Notes under the pieces: model-generated
Database searches by the model: none
Told to the model about the DNA's origin: nothing
Seen by the model: only the letters and a program-made list of their open reading frames with translations
Assembly (NCBI RefSeq): GCF_050920415.1
Contig: NZ_CP169309.1
Length of the DNA: 64,000 bases
From: Escherichia coli
Lineage (GTDB): Bacteria > Pseudomonadota > Gammaproteobacteria > Enterobacterales > Enterobacteriaceae
Direction: 5' to 3' (one strand)
Shown here: positions 4,423-10,123 of the stretch, one piece after another
Numbering within the stretch: the stretch's first letter is position 1
Layout: each line of letters opens with the position of its first letter
Made by a program: the position numbers and the translations under genes

Positions 4423-4650
4423 TACACTAACGAACCGGTAAACAGCCGTATGTGTTGTTTACCGGGATAGCGTGTGCAACTCGTCAACGTCTCTGCTAAA
4501 CAACTGGCAGCCAAATCACGGCTATTGGTTAACCAATATCTGGATAAAAAGCTTACGAATTGAGTGTGCCTTCGCACTATTCAACAGCAATGATAGGCGC
4601 TCACCTGACAAACCGGTAAACTAGTTATTCACGCTAACTATAATGGTTTA

Positions 4651-5241
4651 ATGATGGATAACATGCAGACTGAAGCACAACCGACACGGACCCGGATCCT
4701 CAATGCTGCCAGAGAGATTTTTTCAGAAAATGGATTTCACAGTGCCTCGATGAAAGCCATCTGTAAATCCTGCGCCATTAGTCCCGGGACGCTCTATCAC
4801 CATTTCATCTCCAAAGAAGCCTTGATTCAGGCGATTATCTTACAGGACCAGGAGAGGGCGCTGGCCCGTTTCCGGGAACCGATTGAAGGGATTCATTTCG
4901 TTGACTATATGGTCGAGTCTATTGTCTCTCTCACCCATGAGGCCTTTGGGCAACGGGCGCTGGTGGTCGAAATTATGGCGGAAGGGATGCGTAACCCACA
5001 GGTCGCCGCCATGCTTAAAAATAAGCATATGACGATCACGGAATTTGTTGCCCAGCGGATGCGTGATGCCCAGCAAAAAGGCGAGATAAGCCCAGACATC
5101 AACACGGCAATGACTTCACGTTTACTGCTGGATCTGACCTACGGTGTACTGGCCGATATCGAAGCGGAAGATCTGGCGCGTGAAGCGTCGTTTGCTCAGG
5201 GATTACGCGCGATGATTGGCGGTATATTAACCGCATCCTGA
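4651..5241 (+). CDS. uidR: TetR-family repressor of the uid (gus) operon (196 aa)
   Basis: N-terminal TetR HTH (RTRILNAAREIFSENGFHSASMKAICKSCAISPGTLYHHF); located directly upstream of uidA. Confidence 0.88.
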   Translation: MMDNMQTEAQPTRTRILNAAREIFSENGFHSASMKAICKSCAISPGTLYHHFISKEALIQAIILQDQERALARFREPIEGIHFVDYMVESIVSLTHEAFGQRALVVEIMAEGMRNPQVAAMLKNKHMTITEFVAQRMRDAQQKGEISPDINTAMTSRLLLDLTYGVLADIEAEDLAREASFAQGLRAMIGGILTAS

Positions 5242-5391
5242 TCCTCTCTCTTTCCGCGGGCTGGTGACAACTGAGCCCGCGTTTCATATCGTAATTTCTC
5301 TGTGCAAAAATCATCCTTCCAGGGATCGGAGAATCCCACCTAAATATTCATCGTAGCAATATATCATGAGGGTTTATCGCTCACAATATGT

Positions 5392-5407
5392 TCGAACGAA
5401 CGTTCGA
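5392..5407. promoter_or_regulatory. Perfect inverted repeat TCGAACG-AA-CGTTCGA in the uidR-uidA intergenic region; candidate operator
   Basis: 7-bp arms with 2-bp spacer read directly. A second palindrome CTGTGT-GCA-ACACAG sits at about 5553-5567, closer to the uidA start. Confidence 0.4.
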
Positions 5408-5577
5408 TTGCTTATTTTGTGGCTTCTGTCAACGCTGTTTTAAAGATTAATGCGATCAATATCACGCTGTGGGTATTGCAGTTTTTGGTTTTTTGATCGC
5501 GGTGTCAGTTCTTTTTATTTCCATTTCTCTTCCATGGGTTTCTCACAGATAACTGTGTGCAACACAGAATTGGTTAA

Positions 5578-8810
<3,233 letters not shown>

Positions 8811-8848
8811 TATTCAATAAAAATAATCAGAACATCAAAGGTGCAACT

Positions 8849-10114
8849 ATGAGAAAAATAGTGGCCATGGCCGTTATTTGCCTGACGGCTGCCTCTGGCC
8901 TTACCTCTGCTTACGCGGCGCAACTGGCTGACGATGAAGCGGGACTACGCATCAGACTGAAAAACGAATTGCGCAGGGCGGATAAGCCCAGTGCTGGCGC
9001 GGGAAGAGATATTTACGCATGGGTACAGGGAGGATTGCTCGATTTCAATAGTGGTTATTATTCCAATATTATTGGCGTTGAAGGCGGGGCGTATTATGTT
9101 TATAAATTAGGTGCTCGTGCTGATATGAGTACCCGGTGGTATCTTGATGGTGATAAAAGTTTTGGCTTTGCCCTGGGTGCAGTAAAAATAAAACCCAGTG
9201 AAAATAGCCTGCTTAAATTAGGTCGCTTCGGGACGGATTATAGTTATGGTAGCTTACCTTATCGTATTCCGTTAATGGCTGGCAGTTCGCAACGTACATT
9301 ACCGACAGTTTCTGAAGGAGCATTAGGTTACTGGGCTTTAACGCCAAATATTGATCTGTGGGGAATGTGGCGGTCACGAGTATTTTTATGGACCGATTCA
9401 ACAACCGGTATTCGTGATGAAGGGGTTTATAACAGCCAGACGGGAAAATACGATAAACATCGCGCACGTTCTTTTTTAGCCGCCAGTTGGCATGATGATA
9501 CCAGTCGCTATTCTCTGGGGGCATCGGTACAGAAAGATGTTTCCAATCAGATACAAAGTATTCTCGAGAAAAGCATACCGCTCGACCCGAATTATACGTT
9601 GAAAGGGGAGTTGCTCGGCTTTTACGCGCAACTCGAAGGTTTAAGTCGTAATACCAGCCAGCCCAATGAAACGGCGTTGGTTAGTGGACAATTGACCTGG
9701 AATGCGCCGTGGGGAAGCGTATTTGGCAGTGGTGGTTATTTGCGCCATGCAATGAATGGTGCCGTGGTGGACACCGACATTGGCTATCCCTTTTCATTAA
9801 GTCTTGATCGTAACCGTGAAGGAATGCAGTCCTGGCAATTGGGCGTCAATTATCGTTTAACTCCGCAATTTACGCTGACATTTGCACCGATTGTGACTCG
9901 CGGCTATGAATCCAGTAAACGAGATGTGCGGATTGAAGGCGCGGGTATCTTAGGTGGTATGAACTATCGGGTCAGCGAAGGGCCGTTACAAGGGATGAAT
10001 TTCTTTCTTGCTGCCGATAAAGGGCGGGAAAAGCGCGATGGCAGTACACTGGGCGATCACCTGAATTACTGGGATGTGAAAATGAGTATTCAGTATGACT
10101 TTATGCTGAAGTAA
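8849..10114 (+). CDS. uidC: Outer-membrane glucuronide porin UidC (421 aa)
   Basis: Signal peptide MRKIVAMAVICLTAASGLTSAYA and C-terminal beta-barrel signature ending in F; third gene after uidB. Confidence 0.9.
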   Translation: MRKIVAMAVICLTAASGLTSAYAAQLADDEAGLRIRLKNELRRADKPSAGAGRDIYAWVQGGLLDFNSGYYSNIIGVEGGAYYVYKLGARADMSTRWYLDGDKSFGFALGAVKIKPSENSLLKLGRFGTDYSYGSLPYRIPLMAGSSQRTLPTVSEGALGYWALTPNIDLWGMWRSRVFLWTDSTTGIRDEGVYNSQTGKYDKHRARSFLAASWHDDTSRYSLGASVQKDVSNQIQSILEKSIPLDPNYTLKGELLGFYAQLEGLSRNTSQPNETALVSGQLTWNAPWGSVFGSGGYLRHAMNGAVVDTDIGYPFSLSLDRNREGMQSWQLGVNYRLTPQFTLTFAPIVTRGYESSKRDVRIEGAGILGGMNYRVSEGPLQGMNFFLAADKGREKRDGSTLGDHLNYWDVKMSIQYDFMLK

Positions 10115-10123
10115 GAAAAAACG

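Follow-up and report, generated by a model that had tools for sequence, protein, structure and literature searches.

The stretch of DNA analysed here (the window, 64,000 nt of the Escherichia coli chromosome) carries malI, hdhA, uidR, uidA, uidB, and uidC, in that order. The plus-strand ORF at 4651-5241 is uidR (gusR), annotated under this name in identical E. coli records, which encodes the TetR-family repressor of the uid operon; uidA (gusA), on the plus strand at 5629-7440 and assigned by its identity to annotated E. coli records, encodes beta-glucuronidase and is the first gene of uidABC. The structure of UidR has been solved (PDB match 6ayi, 'HTH-type transcriptional regulator UidR', E = 3.6e-125), and its recognition-helix region S44-F52 together with K55 is invariant in the alignment of orthologues. 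The GUS reporter derives from the uid (gus) operon, which also serves as the model for how gut bacteria reactivate glucuronidated drugs; its operator therefore has practical value, for instance in expression systems induced by glucuronides. The uidR-uidA spacer of 387 nt is 100% identical in two sequenced E. coli strains and only 90-95% identical in the majority of the 5,418 genomes in which it occurs. A first-pass annotation of the window had pointed out two perfect inverted repeats in this spacer as plausible operator sites. Both are present with exactly the sequence and position claimed: P1 (TCGAACGAACGTTCGA, read as TCGAACG-AA-CGTTCGA, 7+2+7) occupies 5392-5407, that is -237..-222 from the uidA ATG, and P2 (CTGTGTGCAACACAG, read as CTGTGT-GCA-ACACAG, 6+3+6) occupies 5553-5567, that is -76..-62. 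The gene context it had given, a TetR-family uidR upstream of uidA with co-regulation by UxuR, was right as well.

We asked how often such repeats are expected by chance, using dinucleotide-preserving shuffles of the 387-nt spacer and counting perfect arms separated by 0-4 nt. A shuffled spacer contained on average 0.53 such repeats when the arms were 6 nt long and 0.14 when they were 7 nt long, and the probability of at least one seven-arm palindrome such as P1 was 0.11. In the single sequence alone P1 and P2 are thus at most marginally unusual and neither is clearly beyond chance; with about 0.5 six-arm palindromes expected per spacer and P about 0.04-0.1 for those observed, both could be read as chance features without function. 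Since these statistics were marginal, the question needed comparative data. A query made from the UidR alignment and run against one genome per species found UidR relatives of 49-97% identity at 14 loci, and in 12 of them uidA(BC) adjoins uidR. The two genes lie side by side in tandem in Escherichia, Erwinia, Pantoea, Yersinia, and Winslowiella, and divergently in Cedecea, Salmonella diarizonae, Enterobacter, Klebsiella sp., Mixta, and one MAG.

In an unbiased scan each 14-mer from the 460 nt upstream of uidA in the window was compared with 11 regions outside Escherichia, and the best match per region was recorded. At the top were the k-mers of P1, with a mean best match of 13.3/14 against a background of 9.5 +/- 0.7, and the two boxes of UxuR type that are described below ranked next. 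P1 is present as one copy in 13/13 regions at -264..-234 with identity of at least 13/16, while the 30 nt upstream of it cannot be aligned across these 13 regions. The conserved unit is 20 bp long (TCGAACGAACGTTCGATTGA, 5392-5411, corresponding to K-12 1696293-1696312), with the cross-genus consensus T[CA]GA[AG][CT]GAAC[GA]TTCG[AG]TTG[A/C/G], the core GAACGTTC, and a nearly invariant right-hand part, GAACGTTCGATTG. It is a pseudo-palindrome with 8/10 symmetric pairs centred between 5401 and 5402, two bases to the right of the centre given in the first-pass annotation. Tandem and divergent loci conserve it equally, and two of them, Klebsiella sp. and the MAG, carry the complete 20-mer, TTGA flank included, in inverted orientation. 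A position weight matrix (PWM) for P1 scored 31-36 bits at one place per locus, and elsewhere in the loci, over 180 kb, no score exceeded 12 bits; the matrix was built from the same instances that it then finds, a circularity which is mitigated by the unbiased k-mer scan. In the 64-kb window P1 scored 32.4 bits and the next best site 11.8 bits. The PWM search of the spacer and the window found no second P1-like site that could serve as an O2 candidate, nor did it find a P1-like autoregulatory site upstream of E. coli uidR or any P1 in the loci of distant TetR homologues (L017-L024). A full-text literature search with the palindrome sequences gave no relevant match.

Three further elements keep their place relative to P1. 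A GTCAA(C/T) block (GTCAAC at 5428-5433 in the window) is conserved in all 13 uidA upstream regions (L003, L006-L016, and the window); its distance from the start of P1 is always 36 nt, and 17 nt further on comes a CRP-like site. The latter (TGCGATCAATATCACG, 5451-5466), which was matched to the consensus by eye, begins 59 nt after the start of P1 and has half-sites conserved in other genera as TGTGA-N6-ACACA/TCACG. The third is a plus-strand hexamer resembling a -10 element (TTTGAT at 5492-5497; TATGAT in other genera), 100 nt after the start of P1 and assigned to the putative uidA promoter. These distances of 36, 59, and 100 nt hold within 1-3 nt across genera, and the sequences between the elements cannot be aligned. 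The best sigma-70-like promoter of Klebsiella sp., the MAG, and Erwinia includes the TATGAT hexamer and is predicted to start transcription about -125..-131 from the ATG; in the window itself the promoter scan gave no good sigma-70 match near uidA. In published CRISPRi tiling, non-template guides at -105 and -94 repressed 27-fold and 10-fold, respectively, and template-strand guides worked best at -158 to -129 and were ineffective at -11, which is consistent with a uidA start upstream of -105. From the orthologous TATGAT promoters and this tiling we infer that uidA transcription starts near 5504, about -125 from the ATG. The centre of P1 would then lie about 100 bp upstream of the start, and P2 and both UxuR-type boxes downstream of P1 would lie in the leader. 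Other promoter assignments were tried and rejected: neither GTCAAC nor the TTGNNN after P1, read as a -35 on either strand, has an acceptable -10 at 16-18 nt in any species, and P1 read as a sigma-E promoter would have a spacer of 24 nt. On the minus strand GTCAA(C/T) reads TTGAC(A/T), the consensus -35, and the TTGA flanking P1 forms TTGA-N17-TCAA with the GTCAAC block.

Within Escherichia, P1 marks the upstream edge of a constrained control region. Distal to P1 the spacer varies greatly, with 80-90% identity in 2,807 genomes, whereas the proximal 200 nt have 13 variable columns among 11 alleles; between E. coli alleles 5242-5391 differs by 10-20% and 5392-5628 is near-invariant. P1 itself changes in the 11 Escherichia alleles only at position 6 (C/T, in strain EcPF7) and position 16 (A/G, in K-12 and its relatives), which are also the two that differ from genus to genus. 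K-12 thus has ...CGTTCGG (6+2+6) and EcPF7 has TCGAATG..., so the perfect 7-2-7 repeat is a trait of some alleles and not of the operator. In Escherichia sp. MOD1-EC7003, in which uidABC is deleted and uidR retained, the right half of P1 is gone and substitutions have accumulated (TAGAGCGAAC followed by TTGTGG...), as would be expected if P1 were constrained only through uidA. In this strain (L004, 3837-3876 and 4700-4800) the GTCAAC equivalent is followed directly by the 3' end of uidC, and hdhA is missing too. Loss of uidABC with retention of uidR occurred independently in E. coli SCPM-O-B-8794 (L005, 4621-4925), where about 300 nt of unrelated sequence stand in place of window positions 5278-10117. 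E. coli RMDEC332 (L032, 1-300) carries an IS4-like ISEc60 which replaces uidR and the distal spacer and ends about 70 nt upstream of P1; operator and uidA are therefore kept in a locus from which the repressor gene is absent. Right after the uidR stop codon and upstream of the operator, long tandem arrays of a 7-nt unit were seen in Erwinia sp. (CACCCTT; L012, about 4590-4690) and Pantoea coffeiphila (CAGCACT; L013, about 4600-4700). A chance origin cannot explain the conservation of P1 across genera, its uniqueness, its fixed spacing, or its decay after loss of uidABC. As judged from these comparative data it is refuted for P1, and that both repeats are functionless accidents is hardly credible.

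We then set P1 against what has been published on GusR binding sites. Pellegrino et al. 2023 (PMC9881133) draw two GusR sites, O1 and O2, both placed upstream of the promoter, and call O1 'high affinity'; for the two sites they cite Little et al. 2018 (PNAS 115:E152) and Blanco et al. 1985 (MGG 199:101), and for direct, specific binding of the purified repressor, relieved by glucuronide, that paper points to Little et al. 2018. In their experiment, a reporter carrying a 158-bp 'O1' deletion no longer responded to repressing or inducing conditions, GusR control having been lost. The primers DE6279 and DE6280 of that paper define the deletion junction as GAGCCCGCGTTTCATACTTTA joined to GCGATCTATATCACG, the left part of which fits the BL21-type allele of strains CH427 and CP66-6. 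Mapped onto the window, the deletion spans about 5294-5451; being larger than P1 it takes out the GTCAAC block as well, and it leaves in place the CRP-like site, the -10-like element, P2, and the UxuR boxes. Since the deleted reporter was unresponsive, the P1-containing segment appears to be necessary for regulation, and P2 would not be sufficient. P1 lies beside the repressor gene in the window and in 12 other loci, has the size of an operator dyad (about 15-20 bp), occurs as one copy in every locus with uidR and uidA and nowhere else in the window, and is decayed where uidABC is gone. The suggestion that P1 is a UidR operator is thus borne out by its footprint across 10 genera, its uniqueness, its decay after loss of uidABC, and its position inside the published O1 deletion. 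P1 is almost certainly the O1 of the literature, an identification for which the mapped deletion is a strong argument. The comparison of sequences would therefore confirm, by independent means, an operator that is already described, and it leaves the accepted picture unchanged; what is new is the cross-genus consensus, the fixed position relative to the CRP-like site and the -10-like element, and the negative result for P2.

The evidence on P2 points the other way. In the scan of the 11 non-Escherichia regions its k-mers reached 9.0-9.6/14, which is background, and P2 is absent from all other genera, which still keep P1 and the same spacing. It lies inside the invariant part of the spacer, so its invariance within Escherichia lends it no support; of the 13 columns that vary in the proximal 200 nt (11 alleles), two fall in P2, and it is broken without compensation in E. 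whittamii (ACACAG>TCACAG) and in E. coli EcPF7 (ACACAG>ACACGG). A second small palindrome, CACAG-ATAA-CTGTG (5544-5557), overlaps P2, and the CACAG/CTGTG motif therefore occurs three times in 24 nt (5544-5567); GATAACT is the only piece of this segment conserved in other genera. It may still be argued that P1 and P2 are both UidR operators, a high-affinity O1 and a low-affinity O2, and that UidR bound at both would loop out the promoter. As the literature has O1 and O2 and the sequence offers no second P1-like site, O2 could be P2, as a weak and dissimilar site; two sites are indeed drawn, with O1 as the 'high affinity' one, in PMC9881133, P1 alone is far from the promoter, and P1 and P2 flank the putative promoter at about 160 bp centre to centre. 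Yet P2 shares no half-site with P1 and gives no PWM signal at 5553-5567, the best other scores in the spacer (9 bits or less) overlapping P1 itself. P2 is also missing from other genera in spite of their conserved P1 and spacing, and two Escherichia alleles break it uncompensated. Furthermore, PMC9881133 places both sites upstream of the promoter, whereas P2 lies downstream of the putative one, and the construct that kept P2 and lacked the O1 region had lost regulation. A two-operator arrangement of this kind therefore seems unlikely to us. With about 0.5 P2-like palindromes expected per spacer by chance, chance is the leading view for P2 taken alone. The proposal that P2 is an operator found no support, for want of conservation, because of the uncompensated breaks in two alleles and its dissimilarity to both P1 and the UxuR box, and because it was retained in the published construct that lost GusR regulation. 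Judging from sequence, P2 is most likely a fortuitous, Escherichia-specific palindrome in the putative uidA leader and not a UidR operator.

We also considered whether UxuR or another regulator might account for either repeat. The boxes at the verified UxuR target gntP-uxuA and at uxuR in K-12, and at uidR, are TTGGTNNACCA, of the type TTGGT(T/C)(A/G)ACCA. Three boxes of this UxuR/ExuR type were found in the window. The one at 4525-4536, upstream of uidR (TTGGTTAACCAA, inside the 14-nt perfect palindrome ATTGGTTAACCAAT at 4524-4537), matches exactly the type found in K-12 at gntP-uxuA and upstream of uxuR, and is identical in K-12. Box 1 (5570-5581; TTGGTTAAC, also given as TTGGTTAACTAA) differs from TTGGTTAACCAA by one mismatch and is the second-best conserved block across genera; box 2 (5590-5601; GGTTGACC, also given as AAGGTTGACCAG) is likewise conserved across genera and resembles TTGGTTGACCAG from upstream of K-12 uxuR. 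A pattern search for the TTGGTNNACCAA-type box with up to 3 mismatches matched at 4525 and 5570 and found none in P1 or P2. P2 could nevertheless be part of a UxuR/ExuR operator, or a site for CRP, CytR, or another regulator confined to E. coli: it directly abuts box 1, fits the GntR-type GT-N-AC pattern loosely, and contains TGTG/CACA motifs. But it does not resemble the boxes of verified UxuR targets and is not conserved while the adjoining boxes are, and we consider such a role distinctly improbable. As a CRP site, P2 was rejected, since it agrees with only about 12/22 of the consensus by eye and has a poor right half-site, the better CRP-like site being that at 5451-5466. The idea that one of the palindromes might be a UxuR site thus gave way to the three boxes, the motif of which neither P1 nor P2 fits. 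The uidR promoter of K-12 is TTAACC-17-TATACG (PMC3946193), and the upstream box within ATTGGTTAACCAAT overlaps its -35 (TTAACC). The uidR -10 of the window (4551-4556) reads CTTACG where K-12 has TATACG, which might weaken uidR expression in this allele. Cedecea, Enterobacter, Klebsiella sp., and the MAG, where the two genes diverge, carry a box of this kind (TTGGTCAACCAAT) on that side of P1 which faces uidR.

Inverted repeats may also act as RNA, P1 as the terminator of uidR and P2 as a leader structure, and a pattern scan does list both as terminator-like stem-loops with T-rich tails. The predicted hairpins, however, are weak and unremarkable (P1, -6.5 kcal/mol, z = -1.1; P2, -5.9 kcal/mol, z = -0.4), and P1 was rejected as an intrinsic terminator, a stable G+C-rich hairpin with a U-run at the end of the transcription unit being lacking. 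A stronger G+C-rich hairpin stands directly after the uidR stop codon on the plus strand, upstream of P1 (5255-5284; CGCGGGCT ... AGCCCGCG and then TTT; partial fold -12.5 kcal/mol), and is the likely uidR terminator, tentatively so because the terminator scan did not flag it. Moreover, loci with a divergent uidR, in which no upstream gene reads into P1, conserve it just as well, it is inverted in two loci, and the changes in P2 are not compensatory. We therefore regard a role of either repeat as an RNA hairpin as very improbable.

Taken together, we hold with good confidence, on the strength of the sequence comparisons, that P1 (5392-5411) is the UidR/GusR operator, almost certainly O1, that P2 is most likely a chance palindrome of Escherichia, and that repression in a fixed geometry is likely. 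A UidR dimer would bind the dyad of about 20 bp through its conserved helix-turn-helix and thereby switch uidABC off. Glucuronides bind UidR and release it from the operator. The one -10-like hexamer that is conserved lies about 100 bp downstream of P1, and the distance from P1 to the CRP-like site and the putative promoter is rigid; with such a separation, repression is probably not a simple occlusion of the -10 and -35 elements. A site so far upstream is atypical for a TetR-type operator, with the start site itself placed from orthologous promoters and CRISPRi tiling. Genetic reports describe cooperative repression by UidR and UxuR, and in view of these and of the rigid spacing the repressors would most likely act in a complex that is looped or depends on contact. 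UidR at P1 and UxuR at the two leader boxes may thus repress cooperatively, in a loop of fixed nucleoprotein geometry. Relative to the putative start, the layout would have UidR about 100 bp upstream at an asymmetric 20-bp operator, GTCAAY 36 nt further on, CRP at about -45, and two UxuR boxes in the leader, with a spacing fixed across more than 10 genera, and UidR would repress only through a loop or through direct contact with UxuR or CRP. That the uid control region is in this sense a rigid multi-protein repression module, in which a TetR-type repressor does not occlude the promoter and to which P2 may add a weak O2, is a possibility that we put forward tentatively and with some doubt.

Classical operators of the TetR family (tetO for TetR, and those of AcrR and QacR) overlap the promoter or the start of transcription. 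P1 is like the TetR, AcrR, and QacR operators in being a short dyad (15-20 bp) for a homodimeric helix-turn-helix repressor which is encoded beside its operon and released by a ligand. It differs from them in its location, about 100 bp upstream of the putative uidA promoter and at a fixed distance, and the uid system differs further in using a second, unrelated repressor, UxuR, and CRP too. The operators of the hexuronate regulon, which bind the GntR-family regulators UxuR and ExuR, are matched by the three boxes of the window, and both P1 and P2 are unlike them. The closest known counterpart is the O1 of the E. coli gus (uid) operon itself, with the same locus, repressor, and species, and with P1 inside the deleted interval; the window allele of P1 is a perfect 7-2-7 repeat whereas that of K-12 is 6-2-6, and the two would be one and the same operator.
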